This document shows, piece by piece, positions 2,409 to 20,397 of a stretch of DNA of 24,221 bases. Below the pieces are notes generated by a model, which searched no databases, was not told where the DNA came from, and saw only the letters and a program-made list of their open reading frames with translations. Origin of the DNA: Desulfosarcinaceae bacterium (lineage in GTDB: Bacteria; Desulfobacterota; Desulfobacteria; Desulfobacterales; Desulfosarcinaceae); the NCBI GenBank assembly GCA_041557055.1, contig JBFFHG010000001.1:1-24221 (forward strand), written 5' to 3'. Position 1 is the first letter of the stretch, and every line of letters starts with the position of its first letter. A program made the position numbers and the translations under genes.

Positions 2409-3179
2409 TTAGAGCAGATTGAAATACCACTCAATGAGGCCCGGCCCTAAAAAGAGGTAGGCAATGGCGCCGATGGCCAGAAACGGACCAAAGGGCAGGG
2501 CCATTTTCATGCCTTTGCCGGCTCTCAACATTAAAATAATCCCAACGATGGTTCCGATCAGGGATGACGTCATGATGGTGAAACACACGCCCTTCCATCC
2601 CAGAAAAGCGCCGATCATGGCCAGCAGTTTTATATCACCGCCCCCCATGCCGTCTTTGCCGGTAAAAAACTGATAACCCCATGCAATCGCCAGCAGGCTG
2701 CCCCCGCCCACGCCTATTCCGATCAGTGAATCTGACCAGGTGATCTGGGGCAGGGCCAGGCTGGCCAGAAATCCCAAAGGGATTCCGGGCAGGGAAATGA
2801 TATCCGGAATGATGCGATGATCGATATCGATAAAGGTGATGACAAGCAGGGCGGCGATAAAGATAAAGTAGACCGGCGCCGGCACACCGAATCCGAATTG
2901 CAGCCATGTGATCAGCGCAAAAAGACCGCAGAGCAGTTCCACAAGGGGATATCGAATCGATATGGCGGTCCGGCAACCCCGGCACCTTCCGCGCAGGATG
3001 ATATAGCTGATCAATGGAATGTTATCATACCAGCCAATGGCTTTGCCGCACACGGGGCATGATGAGGCCGGGCGCACGATGGATTTTCCAATGGGCAGGC
3101 GGTGGATGCAGACATTCAAAAAACTGCCGATGCACATTCCAAGAAAAAAAATATACCAATTAAGCAGCATTGATGTCAT
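2409..3179 (-). CDS. pilD: Type IV prepilin peptidase / N-methyltransferase (A24A)
   Basis: GSFLNVCIHRLP, two Zn-binding CxxC (CPVC, CRGC), catalytic Asp motifs FIDID and GGGD, PFGPFL at the C-terminus, multiple TM helices. Start is 3170, 3179 or 3185; the ORF-track extension to 3380 looks non-coding. Confidence 0.95.
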   Translation of the reverse strand: MTSMLLNWYIFFLGMCIGSFLNVCIHRLPIGKSIVRPASSCPVCGKAIGWYDNIPLISYIILRGRCRGCRTAISIRYPLVELLCGLFALITWLQFGFGVPAPVYFIFIAALLVITFIDIDHRIIPDIISLPGIPLGFLASLALPQITWSDSLIGIGVGGGSLLAIAWGYQFFTGKDGMGGGDIKLLAMIGAFLGWKGVCFTIMTSSLIGTIVGIILMLRAGKGMKMALPFGPFLAIGAIAYLFLGPGLIEWYFNLL

Positions 3180-3362
3180 ATTCACAGCCTGGTAAATGAA
3201 TTGCCGTATTTTGCGCAACACCGACTCAACACATGGCTGCACAATCAGCAGATCCCGGAAGATGGTGTGCGAAGTGTCAATGGCTTTACACAACGCCATG
3301 TTGTTGACGGTTGTAGGGGGATTTAAGGAAAAAATCAAGTTAGATGTTGTCAAGTTGGGGTT

Positions 3363-3380
3363 TTGTCTTATACTAGACAA
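3363..3380. promoter_or_regulatory. Palindromic operator-like site TTGTCT-N6-AGACAA centred on a candidate -10 box
   Basis: Perfect 6-bp inverted repeat whose spacer is TATACT (3369-3374); TTGTCA lies 16 bp upstream (3347-3352). In the pilD/lon divergent intergenic region. Confidence 0.45.
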
Positions 3381-8601: not shown

Positions 8602-9384
8602 ATGAAAGATGTGCAGAATCAACGCGACAACCGGAATCTCCCCATCGATAAGGTGGGGATTAAAAATTTACGCTATCCCGTCACCGTTCGGGACCGCAGG
8701 GAAGGCCGCCAGCACACGGTTGCCACGGTCAATATGTATGTGGATCTGCCCCATGAATATAAAGGCACCCACATGAGCCGTTTTGTGGAGTTGCTTCATC
8801 TGCTCAAAACCGAAGTGTCACTGCAGAAGTTCTCTGAACTCCTTGATCAGATGAAAAACCATCTCAATGCCGCTTCCGCCCACATCGAGATCACCTTTCC
8901 TTACTTTATTGAAAAAAAAGCCCCTATCAGCGCCGCCCCCGGCTTAATGGATTACACCTGCCGCATCATGGGGGCGAGCAATTCCCATAACCAGATCGAT
9001 CTGGTGTCCGAGGTCAATGTGCCGATCACCTCGGTGTGCCCCTGCTCCAAGGAGATCAGTGATCACGGCGCCCACAATCAGCGTGGTGAAGTGAAGCTGC
9101 AAACCCGTTTTAACCGGTTTATCTGGCTTGAAGACATGATTGAGCTGGTGGAGTCGTGTGCTTCCTGTGATGTCTATTCCGTGCTTAAACGGGTGGATGA
9201 AAAACACGTTACCGAGCAAAGCTATGACAACCCCAAATTTGTGGAAGATATCGTGCGAGATGTGGCCGCCTGTTTGATGCAGGATGAAAATATCACTTGG
9301 TTTTCAGTGAGCGCTGAAAATTTTGAATCCATTCACAACCATAGCGCCTACGCCCATATTATCAGCGGGGACAAGCCCATCTAA
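8602..9384 (+). CDS. folE2: GTP cyclohydrolase IB (FolE2)
   Basis: MKDVQ, IDKVGIK, KGTHMSRF, TSVCPCSKEIS, GAHNQR, NPKFVED, ESIHNHSAYA. Start 8602 preferred over 8566. Confidence 0.96.
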   Translation: MKDVQNQRDNRNLPIDKVGIKNLRYPVTVRDRREGRQHTVATVNMYVDLPHEYKGTHMSRFVELLHLLKTEVSLQKFSELLDQMKNHLNAASAHIEITFPYFIEKKAPISAAPGLMDYTCRIMGASNSHNQIDLVSEVNVPITSVCPCSKEISDHGAHNQRGEVKLQTRFNRFIWLEDMIELVESCASCDVYSVLKRVDEKHVTEQSYDNPKFVEDIVRDVAACLMQDENITWFSVSAENFESIHNHSAYAHIISGDKPI

Positions 9385-9865
9385 AAATATCAACTGTCAA
9401 AGTCCAATGGATTCTGACATTTTTTATCTTTGAATGCAGCGCAACGTTCAACAACCCCAAAAAACATATACGATTGCCCTGGCTCACCCCACCTCCTCTG
9501 TTGACATACCATGCGGATTTTGAAATAAATTATTTATATCGGCACACGTTCCGGATTTTAATCAATTCAATCTCATCTTAGTCCGTTTGCTGTAGCCAAA
9601 TTGTTCCGTTGTCCGTCTTGGCCGCAGTGACGGTAGTAGTAAGTGCAGGCCCAGTGCCCGCGATATTTTTCTATTGTGTGTGTGGTAGAAGTGGTTTCAA
9701 AGCCTTCCACCGGCTTTTTGATCAAAGCGGGGCAAAGCGCACCGCCGCAGGAATGCATCCGGCATTTTGAGGATCAGACCGCTTGCCCTGATGCTGGTAT
9801 GGGGCTTGACGTCAGGTTTTGAAACCATTGCCAAGGCCTTCATGACGCGTCATAGAGGAGGCCCC

Positions 9866-12130
9866 ATGTTCCATCGTTTACCTGTGGTGTGGTTTTGGAT
9901 TTGTATCGGCACTGGGCTGTTGGGCGCCATTGGCAGTCGCATGCCCTTGCTATCGAACGCGGAGGAGAGCCTTGGCCTGCACTTGCTGTACATGTTGCGT
10001 GGACCCGAGCAAACGAAGGCCGACGTTGTTATCGTGGCCATTGATCGGCAATCGGCCAAAGCTTTAAATCTTCCGGCGGCACCCCATAAATGGCCGAGGA
10101 CGCTCCATGCCCGGCTATTGGAACGGCTGACCGCCCGGCAAGCGGCCGTTATTGTTTTTGACCTGATTTTTCATGAACCACAGGAGACGGTCAACGACAA
10201 AACCTTTGCGACGGCCATGCACAATGCCGGCAATGTCATTTTAACCCAAACCATCGACAGGCAGGCAATGCCCCTCTCCGATCGGAAGGGCGTCCCGGCA
10301 ACCCGGTTGAATATTGAAAGAATGGTATCGGCCATTCCCGTTCTGGCAGACGCGGCCATCGGCCAGGCGCCATTCCCTTTGCCCAAGGTGCCCATCAAAT
10401 TGAGTCAATACTGGTGTTTCCGCTCCGGGTCCGGTGATGTGCCCACCCTGCCCGTGGCGGCCTTTCATGCCTTTGATGGAGAAGCTTTTAACGGTTTCAT
10501 TCAATTGCTCAGAAAAGCCGATCCTGCCCTTATGGCTTCTTTTCCCGACCCCAGGGATGGAAAATACTCCCTGCGCCATGTTATCAGGACAATCCGGCCG
10601 CTGCATGCCTTGTTTGAAAAAGATGCCACTCTGGCGCCAAGGATGATTGAAGCGTTGGACCGTCATCCGCCCCAACAAATGGCCGGGCACACCATCAGAC
10701 GGATTAGATCGCTCATCAGCCTCTATGGGCATGGCAACAGCCGCTATCTCAATCTTTACGGCCCGTCTGGAACCATCCCAACCATATCCTACCATCGTTT
10801 CGTGACCGAAACCCATACAAGTGAAAACAGTGGCAAGCTGCCGCCCCTGAAGGGCAAGGCGGTCTTTGTGGGGCAGACCGAAAGTGCCTGGTTCAAGGCC
10901 AATGACGGCTTTTACACGGCCTTCACCCAAAAGTCGGGCGTGGACATCAGCGGGGTGGAAATCGCAGCCACCGCCTTTGCCAATTTACTGGAGGACAAAG
11001 CCGTCTATCCCTTGGAACCGAATATCTCTTTTGCATTTTTTCTGGGTTGGGGTATCCTCTCGGCTTTTATCGCTCTTCATTTTTCCACCAGCGCTTGCGC
11101 AGCCGGTCTTTTGCTTCTTAACGGCATTTATATCGCTGTGGCTCATATTCAATTCAAATCCGGCGGTATTTGGTTTCCCCTGGTCGTTCCCATCCTGATT
11201 CAAACGCCGGCGGCATTCATCGTCGGTTTGGCATGGAAATACCGCAACGCCAATACCGAGCGTCAAAACATCCGCAAAGCCTTTGGCCATTACCTGCCCG
11301 ACGAGGTGGTGGATCGGCTGTCCGCCAACATAAAGGAGCTGCGCGCCGGTGGGCAGGTCCTTTATAGCATTTGTCTTTTCACCGATGCCCAGAATTACAC
11401 GACGCTTTCAGAAACCATGGACCCGGAAAGTCTGACCCAATTGATGAATACTTATTATGAGGCTGTTTTCAAGCCCGTCAAGGCCAACGGCGGACTCGTC
11501 CTGCAGGTGATCGGAGATTCGGTTCTGGCCCTTTGGACCGCCCCGGAAGTCAAAAGCGAACTAAAAAAAGCGGCCTGCCGGGCTGCTATCGAGATAACCG
11601 CTTCGGTAAATCGTTTCAATGCACAAGCTGTTCCTTATCTGCTGCCCACCCGAATCGGCATTCACGCCGGTGAAATCCTGTTGGGCAACATCGGCGCCAT
11701 GGACCACTTTGAATACCGGCCGGTGGGCGATATCGTCAACACCGCTTCACGCCTGGAGGGATTGAACAAGTTTTTAGGCACTCGCATGCTGGCTTCCCAG
11801 GAAGCTTTTGCCCCGGACAACGGATTTTCAGCACGGCCGGTGGGACGGTTTGTGTTCAAGGGCAAGTCTCACCCGGTCCAGGTGCATGAACTGCTGCCTC
11901 AAGATAAGCTCTCGCCGGAGCTGCAGACCGCGGTGGCCCGCATCTTTGCATCCGGTTTGAATGCTTTCGAACACCAACGCTGGGATCAGGCCGATGATTT
12001 TTTCAACCGGGTACTGCAAATTGATGACACCGACGGACCGTCACGGTTCTATCTCAGGCTTTGCCGTGAATATCGGCAGCGGCCGCCGGGCAGCGAATGG
12101 GACGGGACCGTGCATCTAAAACAGAAGTAG
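9866..12130 (+). CDS. Membrane-bound class III nucleotide cyclase: TM - CHASE2 - 3 TM - cyclase - TPR-like tail
   Basis: CHASE2 motifs VVIVAID, WPRTLHARLL, VFDLIF, GKAVFVG, GVEI.A; three TM helices follow; cyclase FTD, IGD, RIGIHAG, GDIVNTASRLE, KGK; tail DGPS..Y...WDG. ATG 9866 has SD GGAGG (the ORF track starts at 9767). Confidence 0.92.
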   Translation: MFHRLPVVWFWICIGTGLLGAIGSRMPLLSNAEESLGLHLLYMLRGPEQTKADVVIVAIDRQSAKALNLPAAPHKWPRTLHARLLERLTARQAAVIVFDLIFHEPQETVNDKTFATAMHNAGNVILTQTIDRQAMPLSDRKGVPATRLNIERMVSAIPVLADAAIGQAPFPLPKVPIKLSQYWCFRSGSGDVPTLPVAAFHAFDGEAFNGFIQLLRKADPALMASFPDPRDGKYSLRHVIRTIRPLHALFEKDATLAPRMIEALDRHPPQQMAGHTIRRIRSLISLYGHGNSRYLNLYGPSGTIPTISYHRFVTETHTSENSGKLPPLKGKAVFVGQTESAWFKANDGFYTAFTQKSGVDISGVEIAATAFANLLEDKAVYPLEPNISFAFFLGWGILSAFIALHFSTSACAAGLLLLNGIYIAVAHIQFKSGGIWFPLVVPILIQTPAAFIVGLAWKYRNANTERQNIRKAFGHYLPDEVVDRLSANIKELRAGGQVLYSICLFTDAQNYTTLSETMDPESLTQLMNTYYEAVFKPVKANGGLVLQVIGDSVLALWTAPEVKSELKKAACRAAIEITASVNRFNAQAVPYLLPTRIGIHAGEILLGNIGAMDHFEYRPVGDIVNTASRLEGLNKFLGTRMLASQEAFAPDNGFSARPVGRFVFKGKSHPVQVHELLPQDKLSPELQTAVARIFASGLNAFEHQRWDQADDFFNRVLQIDDTDGPSRFYLRLCREYRQRPPGSEWDGTVHLKQK

Positions 12131-12144
12131 AAAGGTGAGGGGGA

Positions 12145-15100
12145 ATGATGCTGGGACGGGCGATTATCGGGATCACATTGTGCATTTTGGGCGCCGGAAT
12201 CCATGGGGCGCCGCCGGCGGCCCAGGCTGACGGATCGGATACATCCTGGGTCAGCAGGATTGTCTCCATTCAGGGAAACGTACGGGTCAGGTCGCAGGGG
12301 GAATTCGACTGGCGGCCGGCGAACCTGGACGAGGCCCTCTTTGCCGGCGATCAGATCCGCGTGGAGGCCAACAGCCGCGCCGGCATCGTATTGTGCAATG
12401 ATGCCGTTCTGCGCCTGGATCAAAACACCACGTTGGTTTTCACCGAGATCGAGCAGGAGACAACCTTTATTATTAAACTCCTCAGGGGCGCCGCCAATTT
12501 TTTCAGCCGCAGGCCGCGCAGCCTGAAAATCGTCACCCCTTTTGTCAACGGTGTGGTTGAAGGCACGGAATTTTACGTTCAGGTCGATGACGGCCAGACC
12601 CGTATCGACCTGTTTGAGGGGCGCATCATGGCCCGCAACGCTTTTGGAACGGTTTATCTGGCAAAAGGGCAGGGCGCCGTGGCATCGGCCGGCAGCGCCC
12701 CCCAAAGCTGGCTCCTCGTTCAACCGCGGGACAGCGTGCAATGGGCCCTCTATTATCCGCCCGTACCGGCCCCGGGGCCCGATGATGGGCCGGCTGAAAT
12801 CAGAGAATCCATCGCATTGTTCAATCAAGGCAAAATCCTCGCGGCCATCGACACTCTGGCGCAAATCAAAGGGGCTGCGCAGGATTCCCGGTTTTTTGCC
12901 TATCGGGCCGGCTTACTGGTCCACATGGGCCGTGTATCCGAAGGCCGGTCCGATATCCAACACGCCTTGGCAATGGACCCCTCAAATGGTGACGCCCTGG
13001 CCTTAGAGGCGGTTGTCGCAGTGGTTCAAAATCAAAGGCAGGCGGCCCTGGCGGCCGCTCAAAAGGCGGTGCGGTCCGCCCCTGGCTCGGCGGCCGCCCC
13101 AATTGCCCTCTCATATGTCCATCAGGCCGGCTTCAATCTTGCCCAAGCACTTCAGGCCGCTCAAGCTGCGGTGGTCAACGCGCCTGACAACGGTACGGCT
13201 TGGGCCCGTCTGGCTGAGTTGCGGCTCTCCACAGGTGCGCTGGCTCAGGGCATTCAAGCCGCCCAAACGGCTGTCAGGCTGAACCCTCACGTTGCCCACG
13301 GGCACACCATCCTGGGGTTCGCCTATTTGACCCAAATCAAGACCGAAAAGGCCCGTCATGCTTTTAATCGAGCCATTGCCCTGGATTCCGCAGCCCCCCT
13401 GCCGCGCTTGGGCCTCGGACTGGCCGAAATCCGCGACGGCGATTTGGAACAGGGCCGGTCGCAGATGGAAATCGCCGTGGGCCTGGACCCCGGCAATGCC
13501 CTGATCCGCAGTTATCTGGCCAAAGCCTACTTTGATGAAAAACGCGGCCCGCTGGATGAGCAGCAGCTCGAAATCGCCAAAACCCTGGACCCCAACGACC
13601 CCACCCCCTGGTTCTACGACGCCATCCGCAAGCAGACCCTCAACCGGCCGGTGGAGGCCCTTCAGGATATTCAAAAATCCATGGAACTCAACGACAACCG
13701 CGGCGTATACCGCTCCCGCTTGCTGCTGGACCAGGATCTGGCGGCCCGCAGCGCCAGCCTTGGAAGAATTTATAACGATTTGGATTTCCAACACCTTGCG
13801 CTGATGCAGGGGTATGGATCGCTCAATGCGGATTCCACCAATTACTCGGCCCACAGGTTGTTGGCGGACACCTATGCGGCCAAGCCCCGCCATGAGATAG
13901 CAAGGGTGAGTGAATTGCTTCAATCACAACTTTTTCAACCGTTGAATTTGACACCGGTCCAGGCCCATCTGGCCGAATCCGAAACCAATGTGATTGCAGG
14001 CGCAGGACCTGCCGACCTCTCTTTCAATGAGTTTAACCCCCTGTTCACGCGCAATCGGGCCGCGTTCCAGGCCGGCGGCATCAGAGGAAACAACAACACA
14101 TGGGGCCATGAGATCACCGGGTCCGGACTGCTGGACCGTATCTCCGGCAGCATCGGTTCCTTTCATTATGAGACCGATGGTTTCCGCCAAAACAATGATG
14201 ATGCCGATGACCTTTTTAATCTTTTTGTGCAGGGCAGTCTGACGCCGGATACAAGCCTTCAGGCCGAATACAGATATTCGGAAAGTGAATCGGGGGATCT
14301 TTCGCAGAATTTTGACGGTTTGTTTTCCGCTGATCAGCGGGATGAAGAGGACATCATAAAAACAAGGATTGGCGCCCACCATCGTTTTTCGTCACAGTTT
14401 GAGATGGTTGCATCCTACATTCATTCTGATGTGGCTTTTGAAAGAAATAAGACTTTCTCCGGATACCCGGGAACGTTGAAAAGAGATATTGATGGCGATC
14501 TGTATGAGGTTCGAACCGATTATCGTCAAAATCGATTCGGACTCATCACAGGATTCAGTTACATGGATGGCGCAATTCACCAGGATTGGCGAATTTCCCC
14601 TTTCCCAGGCGTTGAGGTGCCCCTTCTGGACCATGAAAAGGCCGATTTTTTTAAAGATAATATCTATGCTTATTCAAATCTGACTTTTTTGGACAAGGCC
14701 GACCTGGTGATCGGGCTCGGTGCCGCCTCAATGAAAGCCGGGTCCCAGATAGAAAAGAAGCAGTTGAATCCCAAATTTGGATTAACCTTGCAGCCATTTT
14801 CAAACACCAGGCTGCGATTGGCCGCGTTTCGGGTTTTGAGCAGCACATATGTCTCCACACAAACGACCGAACCCACGCAGGTGGCCGGTTTCAGCCAGTT
14901 TTTTGACGATCTCGATGCCTCTGACGTCAGATCATACGGGATGGCGATCGATCAGAAATTTTCAAAGCGGTTATTCGGCGGCATTGAATACCTTCGAAGG
15001 GATCTTGATGCGCCCGAATTTAATATCGGTTCGGAAGTTGAGGCCGAGTATTCAAAATGGAAGGAATATACCGGGATTGCCTATCTCTACTGGGCGCCCA

Positions 15101-15498
15101 GTGACGCCATTGCATTGCGTGCCGAATATCAATATGAACAGTTCGACCGCAGAGACAATCCGATGACGTTTGATATCGTTGATATTGAGACCCACCGCGT
15201 TCCATTGAGCCTTAGATTCTTCAGCCCCTTGGGTTTCTCTTTCAGGGTTGCGACAACCTATTTTTACCAGCAAGGAGAATTTGCAGCGACCGATACAAGG
15301 GAGATCTATTCTGACAGCGACAGCTTTTGGATAATAGACACTGAAGTCGCATTTCGATTGCCAAAACAATGGGGCATTCTCTCTTTCGGCGTAAAAAATC
15401 TTTTAGATGAGCAATTCAACTACACAGACACTGATCCATCGAATCCTGCCGTGGTTCCCGGTGTTTTTGCATTTGGCAAAATTACGTTGTCTTACTAG
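12145..15498 (+). CDS. Outer-membrane protein: signal peptide, FecR domain, TPR repeats, C-terminal TonB-receptor-like beta-barrel (NsrA-like architecture)
   Basis: Signal peptide ending AQA; FecR-like GDQIRV...RLDQNT...TP...VEGTEF; Ala-rich TPR helices (A..A...DP.N); alternating aromatic beta-strands from about aa 637; C-terminal beta-signal-like KITLSY. Confidence 0.85.
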   Translation: MMLGRAIIGITLCILGAGIHGAPPAAQADGSDTSWVSRIVSIQGNVRVRSQGEFDWRPANLDEALFAGDQIRVEANSRAGIVLCNDAVLRLDQNTTLVFTEIEQETTFIIKLLRGAANFFSRRPRSLKIVTPFVNGVVEGTEFYVQVDDGQTRIDLFEGRIMARNAFGTVYLAKGQGAVASAGSAPQSWLLVQPRDSVQWALYYPPVPAPGPDDGPAEIRESIALFNQGKILAAIDTLAQIKGAAQDSRFFAYRAGLLVHMGRVSEGRSDIQHALAMDPSNGDALALEAVVAVVQNQRQAALAAAQKAVRSAPGSAAAPIALSYVHQAGFNLAQALQAAQAAVVNAPDNGTAWARLAELRLSTGALAQGIQAAQTAVRLNPHVAHGHTILGFAYLTQIKTEKARHAFNRAIALDSAAPLPRLGLGLAEIRDGDLEQGRSQMEIAVGLDPGNALIRSYLAKAYFDEKRGPLDEQQLEIAKTLDPNDPTPWFYDAIRKQTLNRPVEALQDIQKSMELNDNRGVYRSRLLLDQDLAARSASLGRIYNDLDFQHLALMQGYGSLNADSTNYSAHRLLADTYAAKPRHEIARVSELLQSQLFQPLNLTPVQAHLAESETNVIAGAGPADLSFNEFNPLFTRNRAAFQAGGIRGNNNTWGHEITGSGLLDRISGSIGSFHYETDGFRQNNDDADDLFNLFVQGSLTPDTSLQAEYRYSESESGDLSQNFDGLFSADQRDEEDIIKTRIGAHHRFSSQFEMVASYIHSDVAFERNKTFSGYPGTLKRDIDGDLYEVRTDYRQNRFGLITGFSYMDGAIHQDWRISPFPGVEVPLLDHEKADFFKDNIYAYSNLTFLDKADLVIGLGAASMKAGSQIEKKQLNPKFGLTLQPFSNTRLRLAAFRVLSSTYVSTQTTEPTQVAGFSQFFDDLDASDVRSYGMAIDQKFSKRLFGGIEYLRRDLDAPEFNIGSEVEAEYSKWKEYTGIAYLYWAPSDAIALRAEYQYEQFDRRDNPMTFDIVDIETHRVPLSLRFFSPLGFSFRVATTYFYQQGEFAATDTREIYSDSDSFWIIDTEVAFRLPKQWGILSFGVKNLLDEQFNYTDTDPSNPAVVPGVFAFGKITLSY

Positions 15499-15514
15499 TT
15501 AAAGGAGGTTTTTT

Positions 15515-16171
15515 ATGAAGGGCTTACATTTAAAAAAGGGTGTTTGGAATGTTCTCTGGATCTTGCTTGGGGTGTTCGTGTTAGCCGGATGTGCTGGATG
15601 GTCATACAGACCAAGCCCTCCTTTCCCGGCGCCGGTGCCTGAAGATGCCAAGATTACAAAGAATTACAACTCAAAAGGCCAATTTTTCTTTGCGGATCAA
15701 AAGGGGGAGGTCGTTTCAACCAAACCGATGCCTTTTGGCGTGTTGCTGCAAAAATCGGATACAACGGAGCCGAACTGGATGAAGGTTCTCGGATGTTTTA
15801 CGGTTTATCGCATCCCCAATCACAGCAATGTGTGGCTGTGTGACAAAGATTCCCGATGCCTTGAAGGCACTCCCGCAGATAAAGCCAATGGCGCTGTTTT
15901 CAGCGTTAATTTTGACGGCAAAAAGCTGTTTATAGCCGACGCGTCGGGCCGCAGCATATCCGAAAAGGATCTAAAGAAGTTTGCTTCATTGGTTCGAGAT
16001 ACTGATCCTGACTCGCGGGCAGGCATAAGATTGTTGGATACCTTTACAATATACAAAATTAAAGGTTCTATCAGGATCGCGGATTGTTGCGAAAATATTT
16101 GTTTTTGCACATGTTTCGATGAAACAACCTGGCACCAGAGCGCGTGTGATAGACACGGTGCTTGCCCCTGA
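15515..16171 (+). CDS. Hypothetical lipoprotein with a two-fold internal repeat and Cys-rich C-terminus
   Basis: SD AAGGAGG; basic N-region, hydrophobic stretch, lipobox LAG-C26; Ala at +2; 10 further Cys, 7 of them in the last 28 aa. Confidence 0.85.
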   Translation: MKGLHLKKGVWNVLWILLGVFVLAGCAGWSYRPSPPFPAPVPEDAKITKNYNSKGQFFFADQKGEVVSTKPMPFGVLLQKSDTTEPNWMKVLGCFTVYRIPNHSNVWLCDKDSRCLEGTPADKANGAVFSVNFDGKKLFIADASGRSISEKDLKKFASLVRDTDPDSRAGIRLLDTFTIYKIKGSIRIADCCENICFCTCFDETTWHQSACDRHGACP

Positions 16172-16275
16172 TCAGGCCCGGGTTTATATTCCCGGTGTTC
16201 GGAAATCAGCATATAAACGTTTAGGGATCGCCAACGACCTGAAATAAGGCATTTTAAGAAAAATTTGGAGCATTC

Positions 16276-16911
16276 ATGTTAGAACGGGTTTCCCTTTTTT
16301 CGAATTTGAAAGCGCAGGAGATTGCCCAACTGGAGACCATCGGCCATGAGCGGTCGGTGGCCAAGAACAGTGTGGTGATCAATGAAGGCGACAATACGGA
16401 CTCGCTTTACGTTGTTGTAAAAGGCAAGGCCCATGCCCTGCGCAGTGATGAATCGGGCAGGCAGTTCATCGTCAATCGCTTCGGCCCCTATGATTATTTC
16501 GGTGAGATGAGTTTTTTCGATCGCAATGTGCGTTGTGCAACGGTGATTACAAAAGAGAAGTGCATCTTGATGGTTCTGCCGCGCAACGCCTTTTTCGATT
16601 TTGCCGCCAAACATCATGAGATCTACTGGAACGTCATTCGGGCCCTGTTGGAAAAACTCAGAAAGGCCACTGAGCAAATCGAGCAACTGGCCTTTCTGGA
16701 TGTTTATGGGCGCCTGACCCGTTTTCTGATCGAAAATCAGAATGAGGATGGGGTAATTGAGGAAAAGCTGACCCAACAGGAGCTGGCCGATTTGGTGGGG
16801 GCATCACGGGAAACGGTCAACCGTATTTTCAATGAACTGGTCGGCGGCGGTTACATAACCAAGGAAAAGGGGCGCATCAAGATTCATAAAAAGCTCCCCT
16901 ACAGCTTTTGA
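16276..16911 (+). CDS. CRP/FNR-family transcriptional regulator, CRP-like with cNMP pocket
   Basis: cNMP domain FGEMS...VRCATV, hinge LAFLDVYGRL (E. coli CRP LAFLDVTGRI), HTH TQQELADLVGASRETVNR; no FNR N-terminal Cys cluster. Confidence 0.93.
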   Translation: MLERVSLFSNLKAQEIAQLETIGHERSVAKNSVVINEGDNTDSLYVVVKGKAHALRSDESGRQFIVNRFGPYDYFGEMSFFDRNVRCATVITKEKCILMVLPRNAFFDFAAKHHEIYWNVIRALLEKLRKATEQIEQLAFLDVYGRLTRFLIENQNEDGVIEEKLTQQELADLVGASRETVNRIFNELVGGGYITKEKGRIKIHKKLPYSF

Positions 16912-20381: not shown

Positions 20382-20397
20382 TGCGATCCATTTCACA
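20382..20397. promoter_or_regulatory. CRP-type binding site
   Basis: TGCGA-tccatt-TCACA, 9/10 match to TGTGA-N6-TCACA; intergenic; best such match found when checking TGTGA/TCACA occurrences in the window by eye. Confidence 0.55.

Follow-up and report, generated by a model that had tools for sequence, protein, structure and literature searches.

A Desulfobacteraceae-type gene cluster that probably encodes an NsrA-CyaK-Clr-type trans-envelope pathway with a small lipoprotein partner

A compact four-gene cluster in a 24,221-nt stretch of DNA (the window) from a marine Desulfobacteraceae-type bacterium is probably this lineage's version of the NsrA-CyaK-Clr-type trans-envelope pathway, with a small lipoprotein that most likely partners its receptor physically. 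In the pathway that we propose, the outer-membrane receptor would present its 22-strand barrel, which lacks a plug, at the cell surface while its TPR and FecR domains face the periplasm, and would relay a signal from outside the cell or from the envelope to the CHASE2 domain that an inner-membrane class III cyclase carries in the periplasm, after which the resulting cyclic nucleotide would be read by a CRP-type regulator encoded at the cluster end. The relay from surface to CHASE2 to cyclic nucleotide to CRP put forward in the preliminary description of this DNA is thereby supported, with the direction of signal flow presumed from homology to the Sinorhizobium system. To our knowledge, CHASE2, one of the commonest bacterial sensor domains, has no known ligand, and NsrA is the only studied case of an outer-membrane protein feeding it.

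The ORF list of the window confirmed four co-oriented plus-strand ORFs at 9866-16911, separated by the 14-, 16- and 104-bp gaps originally reported. They encode a CHASE2 cyclase (9866..12130; 754 aa, reading frame open from 9767), an NsrA-type FecR-TPR-barrel receptor (12145..15498; 1117 aa), a Cys-rich lipoprotein (15515..16171; 218 aa) and a CRP-family regulator (16276..16911; 211 aa). The Shine-Dalgarno sequence AGAGGAGG precedes the cyclase ATG at 9866, and the Shine-Dalgarno-like sequences GGTGAGGGGG and AAGGAGG lie close 5′ of the barrel and lipoprotein genes; judged by sequence, the start sites of the cluster genes look sound. Housekeeping genes flank the cluster, with folE2 upstream and an S13 peptidase gene downstream on the opposite strand. 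The 481-bp intergenic region 5′ of the cyclase gene (9385..9865, plus strand), read here as the presumed promoter or regulatory region, contained only weak sigma-70-like matches, and Rfam returned 0 matches over the whole window including this region. A CRP-box scan (TGTGA-N6-TCACA, ≤2 mismatches) gave 7 matches against 7.6 expected by chance, supporting no specific target. The sequencing runs found to contain the cluster sequence were DNA runs of marine metagenome, with none among RNA runs.

The cyclase matched Pfam CHASE2 (1.4e-29) and Guanylate_cyc (1.9e-13), with an N-terminal TM helix followed by a periplasmic CHASE2 domain (about aa 40-398), further TM helices and a class III cyclase domain (aa 504-668). 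In the alignment, the cyclase retains the Asp residues for metal binding (FTD, IGD) as well as the Asn and Arg in VNTASR, and the base-specifying positions are occupied by Gln (LQVIGD) and Arg (EYRPVGD), a pair that departs from the Lys plus Asp/Thr/Ser expected of adenylate cyclases and is conserved among close orthologues; the S. meliloti cyclase CyaK has Lys and Ser there. Because both residues are non-canonical, the nucleotide that the putative enzyme would make is uncertain and may not be cAMP, and the conserved pair poses the question of which nucleotide this branch of cyclases makes. Since the same genome encodes further cyclases, another CHASE2 protein and additional CRP/FNR members, the components need not be wired one-to-one.

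The receptor is a single polypeptide within the ~1100-1200-aa size range of its type, in which a signal peptide is followed by a FecR beta-sandwich (37-190), a TPR array (217-597), a linker (598-637) and a C-terminal beta-barrel (638-1116), with Pfam matches to FecR (5e-12) and several TPR families. The C-terminal half had at first only been guessed to be a barrel, a guess borne out by the AlphaFold2 (AF2) model (pLDDT 79, pTM 0.78), which places 22 strands across 638-1116, and by Foldseek, which retrieved TonB-dependent transporters (E about 1e-16 to 1e-12), among them FhuE, FpvA, FecA and BtuB (4e-16 to 1e-12). The chain ends in an aromatic residue (...TLSY). The receptor shares the 22-strand barrel with TonB-dependent transporters and lacks their N-terminal plug and TonB box; the Plug family was absent from a Pfam search at E ≤ 0.01, and in the AF2 model the barrel is preceded by the TPR helices and a 40-residue linker devoid of secondary structure. 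More than 3600 homologues have the same FecR-TPR-barrel architecture, and the species genomes that contain relatives number at least 528 and span many phyla.

The function of NsrA, CyaK and Clr has been published (PMC7529298, PMC13001267): Sinorhizobium genetics tie NsrA, whose barrel portion lies at residues 600-1200, to cyclase signalling, and the system responds to an added protein signal (PMC7529298). The analogy to this system drawn in the preliminary description is supported by the comparison. A tblastn search of the receptor against the Sinorhizobium locus matched FecR and TPR, and a family profile built from 42 receptor homologues, with the rhizobial sequence left out, matched a 1209-aa S. 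meliloti pSymB ORF (L007:6893-10522) collinearly at E 1e-41. The homology covers FecR (4e-25), TPR (3e-15) and the barrel, the last in two segments (1e-5 and 4e-4), and a CHASE2 cyclase gene follows the ORF. The ORF agrees with the NsrA layout in the literature (PMC7529298), and from its replicon, size and CHASE2-cyclase neighbour, we infer that it is NsrA.

The regulator encoded by the fourth gene matched Pfam cNMP_binding (2.6e-23), HTH_Crp_2 (7.2e-15) and Crp and has an RETVNR recognition helix; in NCBIfam it scores highest against CRP, with 111 bits, under the equivalog cut-off of 266. The preliminary description had set beforehand that failure of the four genes to co-occur in other genomes would count against the relay. 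The search did not bear out such a failure: the same genes recur in the same order in L004 and L009/L010, where the flanks are unrelated, and in L011, where they are syntenic. In L009 the lipoprotein gene overlaps the barrel gene by 4 bp; a further locus, L012, has three of the four genes, the CRP gene being the one missing. The contigs in which the full set recurs are Desulfobacteraceae-type, and the nearest named relatives of the host are Desulfobacteraceae MAGs, in agreement with the non-alphaproteobacterial host suspected earlier. In a wider survey sampling 80 species genomes, the cyclase gene lay directly upstream of the barrel gene on the same strand at 38 of the 64 loci that could be evaluated, with 15 further loci having it elsewhere within 6 kb, a small-family member (see below) lay directly downstream at 25/76, and a CRP gene was present at 12 of 47 loci. 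By gene neighbourhood, the cyclase and barrel are a widespread core and CRP is an optional neighbour, linked in part of the family. Identity among related modules is graded, at 66-83% for the CRPs adjoining the module in related genomes, 48-69% for cyclase and barrel and ≤51% for the small protein, which is often undetectable by BLAST; the small-protein family is fast-evolving.

The lipoprotein had been noted as a component unrecognised from described systems; it indeed falls outside the described NsrA system and matches no family in Pfam or NCBIfam, nor do the small proteins related to it (Pfam at E ≤ 1). It has the signal peptide ending in a lipobox Cys that defines bacterial lipoproteins (L-A-G-C26, in ...FVLAGC26AGW), and this Cys is invariant among 7 homologues. 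In E. coli, the residue at +2 governs lipoprotein sorting; by this rule, the Ala found here suggests sorting to the outer membrane. The AF2 model is confidently globular (pLDDT 82), and structural searches gave no meaningful relative: Foldseek against the PDB reached a best E of 0.035, with TM no higher than 0.25; TM did not exceed 0.15 for AFDB clusters or 0.36 for the ESM Atlas searched by shape; the ESM Atlas searched by features returned unnamed clusters with scores of 0.81 or less; and VIA-align against 48,161 chains reached a best Z of 4.5, under the usual noise of 7-8.

A profile restricted to the short forms matched the lipoprotein twice, at residues 1-118, signal peptide included (i-E 6.5e-12), and at 124-206 (3.7e-12), identifying it at the sequence level as a tandem duplication of a roughly 80-aa Cys-containing domain. 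Single-domain forms of 71-180 aa are encoded directly 3′ of the barrel gene in Desulfobacterota, Nitrospirota and Gammaproteobacteria, and the short-form profile also retrieves the long forms. From a pool of 8481 ORFs, 231 of which occupy the position directly after a barrel gene, an iterative profile converged on 44 ORFs, all but one of them (43/44) directly downstream of a barrel gene. The aligned family is marked by a pair of conserved Gly within a hairpin motif at the N-terminus and by the signature (G/N)(S/P)xC...G...C at the C-terminus. Two divergent subgroups were joined to it by hhalign at 95.8% and 87% probability, and the small ORFs of subgroup D (L022, L024, L028, L030) reached 13% against the short-form profile; the iterative profile later recruited L028 and L030 and left out L022 and L024. 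With its two domain copies and its gene directly after the barrel gene, the window lipoprotein belongs, by these profile matches, to an unannotated small-protein family encoded right after NsrA-type barrel genes in many phyla. Because the family is genetically coupled to these genes across phyla, the lipoprotein most likely associates physically with the receptor. An alignment-free complex prediction of the barrel (598-1117) with the mature lipoprotein (27-218) scored 0.00 in a run without controls and counts neither way.

How the two proteins might fit together is suggested by analogy. LptE-LptD and RcsF-OmpA/C/F are pairs of a small lipoprotein and an outer-membrane barrel, and RcsF, which contains disulfides, reports to an inner-membrane signalling protein. 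We hold weakly that the window lipoprotein may sit inside the plug-less barrel, close it as a lid or serve as a surface co-sensor, in a logic comparable to that of LptE in LptD or RcsF in OmpA/C/F. A more far-reaching proposal, which we entertain tentatively and regard as well short of likely, is that NsrA-type receptors have the small Cys protein as an obligate third subunit, which occupies or caps the barrel and is the surface-exposed, fast-evolving element that binds the signal. Were this so, the duplication in the window lipoprotein would create a two-headed sensor, the thousands of uncharacterised FecR-TPR-barrel systems would represent a general three-part outer-membrane sensing machine, and a lipoprotein-in-barrel design would have evolved independently of LptDE and RcsF-OMP.

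Three other explanations were weighed against a receptor-partner pathway. The resemblance of the barrel to siderophore and cobalamin transporters, the top Foldseek matches, together with the label 'TonB-dependent receptor' on some database entries for receptor homologues, could mean that the protein is a nutrient transporter, and weak, sub-threshold NCBIfam TPR matches to PgaA and PrsT could instead point to an export pore resembling BcsC or PgaA; in either case the products of the other three genes would be unrelated neighbours. However, the plug and TonB box are absent, with only the 40-residue linker before the barrel, the window contains no gene for TonB/ExbBD, a polysaccharide synthase or an ECF sigma factor, the cyclase gene directly adjoins the barrel gene in most relatives across phyla, and Sinorhizobium genetics link a homologue to cyclase signalling (PMC7529298), all of which make a transporter or pore very improbable. 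The same parts that make up the proposed pathway, with a small disulfide-type lipoprotein coupled to an outer-membrane barrel, would also serve a module that senses the cell's own envelope stress, such as stress of the outer membrane or of lipoprotein trafficking, in an RcsF-like manner rather than an external ligand, the lipoprotein being the stress-sensitive element whose place in or beneath the barrel is relayed to CHASE2; the module turns up across many phyla in free-living bacteria for which no host signal is evident, which fits such a role. We nevertheless consider it distinctly unlikely, given that the lipoprotein resembles RcsF neither in sequence nor in fold, that its fast divergence is more typical of surface-exposed or ligand-specific parts, and that the Sinorhizobium homologue answers to an added protein signal (PMC7529298).

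The small protein itself leaves room for a further explanation, in which it is a separate product that merely shares the operon: a signal or cargo that is secreted or made by the cell for itself, or an inhibitor that acts in the periplasm on the contact between FecR and CHASE2. Several family members of 71-90 aa, with a Trp/Cys-rich C-terminus, have no signal peptide, and a role confined to the periplasm or outer membrane is difficult to reconcile with family members, among them the 71-aa Nitrospirota forms, in which no signal peptide is recognisable. Clear lipoboxes or signal anchors in the window copy and in many other members, and the confidently globular AF2 model, which speaks against a processed peptide, nevertheless render a separate product rather doubtful. 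We favour the NsrA-CyaK-Clr-type pathway with the lipoprotein as receptor partner.

Because NsrA-type systems are already in the literature and very widespread, the advance made here is an incremental and not a fundamental one. The window places NsrA-type machinery in a marine sulfate-reducer lineage, transcription factor included, in one compact cluster whose four genes suit reconstitution, and the small Cys family tied to the receptor gene across phyla offers experimenters a defined third candidate component.

Among known systems, the LptE-LptD and RcsF-OMP pairs are likened to the cluster by a small lipoprotein paired with a barrel, a pairing proposed for the window from gene position, and the window lipoprotein showed no sequence or fold similarity to either lipoprotein. 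FecA-FecR-FecI and other TonB-dependent transporters share the 22-strand barrel and the use of a FecR-type domain in signalling across the periplasm. Unlike FecA, however, the window receptor has no plug, TonB box or N-terminal signalling domain, its FecR domain sits on the outer-membrane protein rather than on an inner-membrane anti-sigma factor, and the output is a nucleotide cyclase rather than an ECF sigma factor. Iron signalling of the FecA/FecR/FecI type was rejected for want of a plug and an ECF sigma factor, and a BcsC/PgaA-type export pore for the absence of synthase genes and the conserved cyclase linkage.

A further known system is a cluster of Campylobacterota that comprises a CHASE2 adenylate cyclase, a FecR-domain outer-membrane protein, a TPR protein and a phosphodiesterase, and has been read as one pathway spread by horizontal transfer (PMC9239204). 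There, as in the window, a CHASE2 cyclase is genetically linked to FecR and TPR envelope proteins. FecR and TPR, however, lie on separate proteins in Campylobacterota and are both fused to the barrel in the window, where the cluster has no phosphodiesterase and includes a CRP as well as a small lipoprotein.

The likeness from which the proposed pathway derives is to the NsrA system of S. meliloti, in which a receptor of ~1100-1200 aa likewise combines FecR, a TPR array and a C-terminal barrel, its gene likewise adjoins that of a CHASE2 class III cyclase, and a CRP-family protein acts as nucleotide receptor, as the window CRP presumably would. The two receptors are only about 22% identical overall, and the gene order differs, with the cyclase gene before the barrel gene in the window and nsrA before cyaK in S. 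meliloti. A small Cys lipoprotein gene follows the window barrel gene, whereas none of that family was found at the S. meliloti nsrA-cyaK locus, and the lipoprotein partner is therefore not universal. The cyclases also differ at their specificity residues (Gln/Arg against Lys/Ser in CyaK). The CRP gene lies inside the window cluster, whereas clr is elsewhere in the S. meliloti genome, and the hosts are a marine Desulfobacteraceae-type bacterium in the one case and a plant symbiont in the other.

The four co-oriented plus-strand genes of the preliminary description, separated by gaps of 14, 16 and 104 bp, were recovered exactly in the ORF list. By Pfam and NCBIfam, gene 1 (9767/9866-12130) encodes CHASE2 and Guanylate_cyc domains, gene 2 (12145-15498) carries FecR and TPR families in its N-terminal half, and gene 4 (16276-16911) matches cNMP_binding, HTH_Crp_2 and Crp, while the product of gene 3 (15515-16171) matched no family in either library and has an N-terminal signal peptide with the lipobox LAGC26 at its end. 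The sequence AGAGGAGG directly precedes the cyclase ATG at 9866, and GGTGAGGGGG and AAGGAGG lie upstream of genes 2 and 3, respectively. Housekeeping genes flank the cluster on both sides, with Lon, TsaB, a PP-loop protein and folE2 upstream and an S13 peptidase, a sigma-54 response regulator and Tex downstream. Also in the window, on the minus strand, are genes for a Ser/Thr protein kinase whose C-terminus carries an Lcl_C domain (197-1612), for a calcineurin-like phosphoesterase (1653-2396) and for a prepilin peptidase whose N-terminus is unusually long (2409-3380).

An AlphaFold2 model of the gene 2 product, built with 42 homologues in the alignment (pLDDT 79, pTM 0.78), comprised a signal peptide, a FecR β-sandwich (residues 37-190), an array of TPRs (217-597), a linker of 40 residues lacking secondary structure and 22 β-strands (638-1116). 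A Foldseek comparison with the PDB retrieved the TonB-dependent transporters FhuE, FpvA, FecA, BtuB and OprC (E 4e-16 to 1e-12). Given that Pfam found no Plug domain and that nothing in the modelled stretch from TPR to barrel could make a plug, the protein is predicted to be a plug-less barrel resembling those of TonB-dependent transporters, with its FecR and TPR domains in the periplasm. The GC content falls inside this gene, from ~0.59 at 12-14 kb to 0.46-0.49 at 14-17 kb, and the drop at ~14,000 coincides with the TPR-to-barrel boundary (about residues 600-640); the amino-acid composition of the Ala-rich TPR part may explain it without a swapped cassette.

The FecR-TPR-barrel architecture is shared by more than 3600 proteins in a search with the barrel region alone, and a scan of species-representative genomes placed relatives in at least 528 genomes of Desulfobacterota, Nitrospirota, Gammaproteobacteria (Methylococcales, Nitrosococcus), Rokubacteria, Brocadia, Binatia, Dadabacteria, Poribacteria and others. 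The nearest named relatives are Desulfobacteraceae MAGs, and the sequence runs containing the window sequence were marine metagenomes only. The proposal that the four genes form a set held up in the synteny comparison, as the same order recurred in the relatives' loci L004, L009/L010 and L011, with different flanks in L004 and L009/L010 and the same flanks in L011; a further locus, L012, contained genes 1-3 without the CRP gene. Across 20 genomes belonging to the same family, the cyclase-then-barrel order was nearly universal, often with a CRP gene next. The survey was then widened to the 80 best loci of all phyla. Of the 64 that were evaluable for the cyclase gene, 38 had it immediately upstream in the same orientation and another 15 had it elsewhere within 6 kb. 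A CRP gene was found in 12 of 47 loci; in Desulfobacteraceae it sits downstream, and in Nitrospirota and Gammaproteobacteria, Nitrosococcus oceani ATCC 19707 among them, it is upstream and divergently oriented. The core thus consists of cyclase and barrel, with CRP a frequent but optional neighbour.

With gene 3 as a single-sequence query, only two close relatives were detected among 5.8 billion clusters, and a profile of seven long forms, run against 1.84 billion representatives, retrieved 13 full-length clusters together with a few proteins of 114-156 aa. Two motifs present in both halves of the window lipoprotein recur in these short proteins and in the small ORFs that N. oceani and Desulfosarcina BuS5 carry after their barrel genes: h-x-h-x-x-D-G-x-h...D-x-x-G at the N-terminus and (G/N)(S/P)-x-C...G...C at the C-terminus of the small domain. 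When the profile was made exclusively from short forms, it matched the window lipoprotein twice, at residues 1-118 including the signal peptide (i-E 6.5e-12) and 124-206 (i-E 3.7e-12); the lipoprotein is therefore a tandem duplication of the small domain, and its tail has extra Cys residues. Six separate stretches of a 1523-aa protein of the representative library (P0146) were also matched by the lipoprotein profile, so the small domain exists as a long repeat array as well.

Iterative profile searching of a pool of 8481 ORFs, drawn from all retrieved loci, converged at 44 ORFs. Of these, 43 immediately follow a barrel gene, a position occupied by only 231 of the 8481 pool ORFs; the 44th overlaps the end of a barrel gene. 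By this conservative profile, 25 of the 76 evaluable loci, which come from many phyla, contain a member, and many other loci have an unassigned small ORF in the same place with a Cys/Trp-rich C-terminus whose likeness was judged by eye only. Of three divergent subgroups, hhalign supported two (95.8% and 87% probability) and left the third unsupported (13%). Members matched no Pfam or NCBIfam family and carried no name beyond "hypothetical protein". The lipoprotein AlphaFold2 model, built from seven sequences, was confident (pLDDT 82, pTM 0.76) and had no structural relatives in the PDB, AFDB clusters or the ESM Atlas. Identity between the window and its relatives is 66-83% for CRP, 48-69% for cyclase and barrel and at most 51% for the small protein, often below BLAST detection, marking the latter as by far the fastest-evolving part of the cluster. 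A secreted 247-aa protein without a Pfam family follows the barrel and 134-aa partner genes of N. oceani ATCC 19707 (L013:12357-13100), and secreted Cys-rich proteins of 200-470 aa occupy the downstream position in several further loci (L025, L026 and L027).

In the cyclase-domain alignment, the window enzyme has lost neither of its two metal-binding Asp residues nor the transition-state Asn and Arg, and it is probably active. Its base-specifying positions hold Gln (LQVIGD; codon 11504-11506) and Arg (EYRPVGD; codon 11717-11719) rather than Lys and Asp/Thr, so the nucleotide produced is uncertain and cAMP cannot be assumed. The Gln/Arg pair is conserved among close orthologues; distant module cyclases pair Asp, Asn or Ser with Arg, which is present in most module-linked cyclases. 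CRP retains the G-E...R-x-A phosphate-binding cassette, with Cys replacing Ser83 in E. coli CRP numbering, and has the recognition helix R-E-T-V-N-R. The same genome (82% complete) encodes at least three further class III cyclase domains, only distant CRP/FNR paralogues (23-28% identity) and a second CHASE2 protein, in an 848-aa open frame (G000:C124:3111-4259, minus strand). TGTGA-N6-TCACA with up to two mismatches occurs seven times in the window against 7.6 expected by chance; the one-mismatch matches lie at 20382-20397 and at 9322-9337, the latter within the end of folE2 and ~530 bp before the start of the cyclase gene.

In Sinorhizobium, the outer-membrane receptor NsrA, whose barrel spans residues 600-1200, is required together with CyaK to perceive a protein signal (PMC7529298), in a chain from NsrA through a CHASE2 cyclase and cAMP to Clr (PMC13001267). 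A tblastn search of plasmids matched rhizobial megaplasmids only, and on pSymB-type replicons of S. meliloti the match fell within a 1209-aa ORF, presumed to be NsrA, followed by a CHASE2 cyclase gene. A family profile from which the rhizobial ORF was left out aligned collinearly with it over FecR, TPR and two barrel segments (full-sequence E 1e-41), at ~22% identity to the window barrel protein. The Sinorhizobium analogy of the preliminary description therefore reflects true, distant homology.

Homology and conserved synteny argue for an NsrA-type relay as the best-supported reading, in which the barrel would signal through TPR and FecR to CHASE2, the cyclase, a cyclic nucleotide and CRP. For the small protein, we favour a physical partner of the barrel, acting as filler or cap or as co-sensor, because the barrel is plug-less and the protein is lipid-anchored here, Cys-rich, position-coupled and fast-evolving; in its strong form, we regard this proposal as rather unlikely. 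Members lacking a signal peptide do not fit it easily. By contrast to the window member and many others, which are lipoproteins, the 71-aa Nitrospirota forms (L051:9347-9562, L070:9287-9502 and L081:9317-9532) have no hydrophobic N-terminus or lipobox, begin with MPKVVMRLAVMDNG, end with NPCTWVNALGTWYYICW and contain two conserved Cys.

The system type is already published and common, and the literature already links CHASE2 to FecR-type envelope proteins. New in the window are the compact, all-in-one form of the cluster in a lineage of Desulfobacteraceae, a profile-level link between the duplicated lipoprotein and the small partner family, and the conserved non-canonical specificity pair of its cyclase, Gln and Arg, where CyaK of S. 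meliloti carries Ser beside the canonical Lys.
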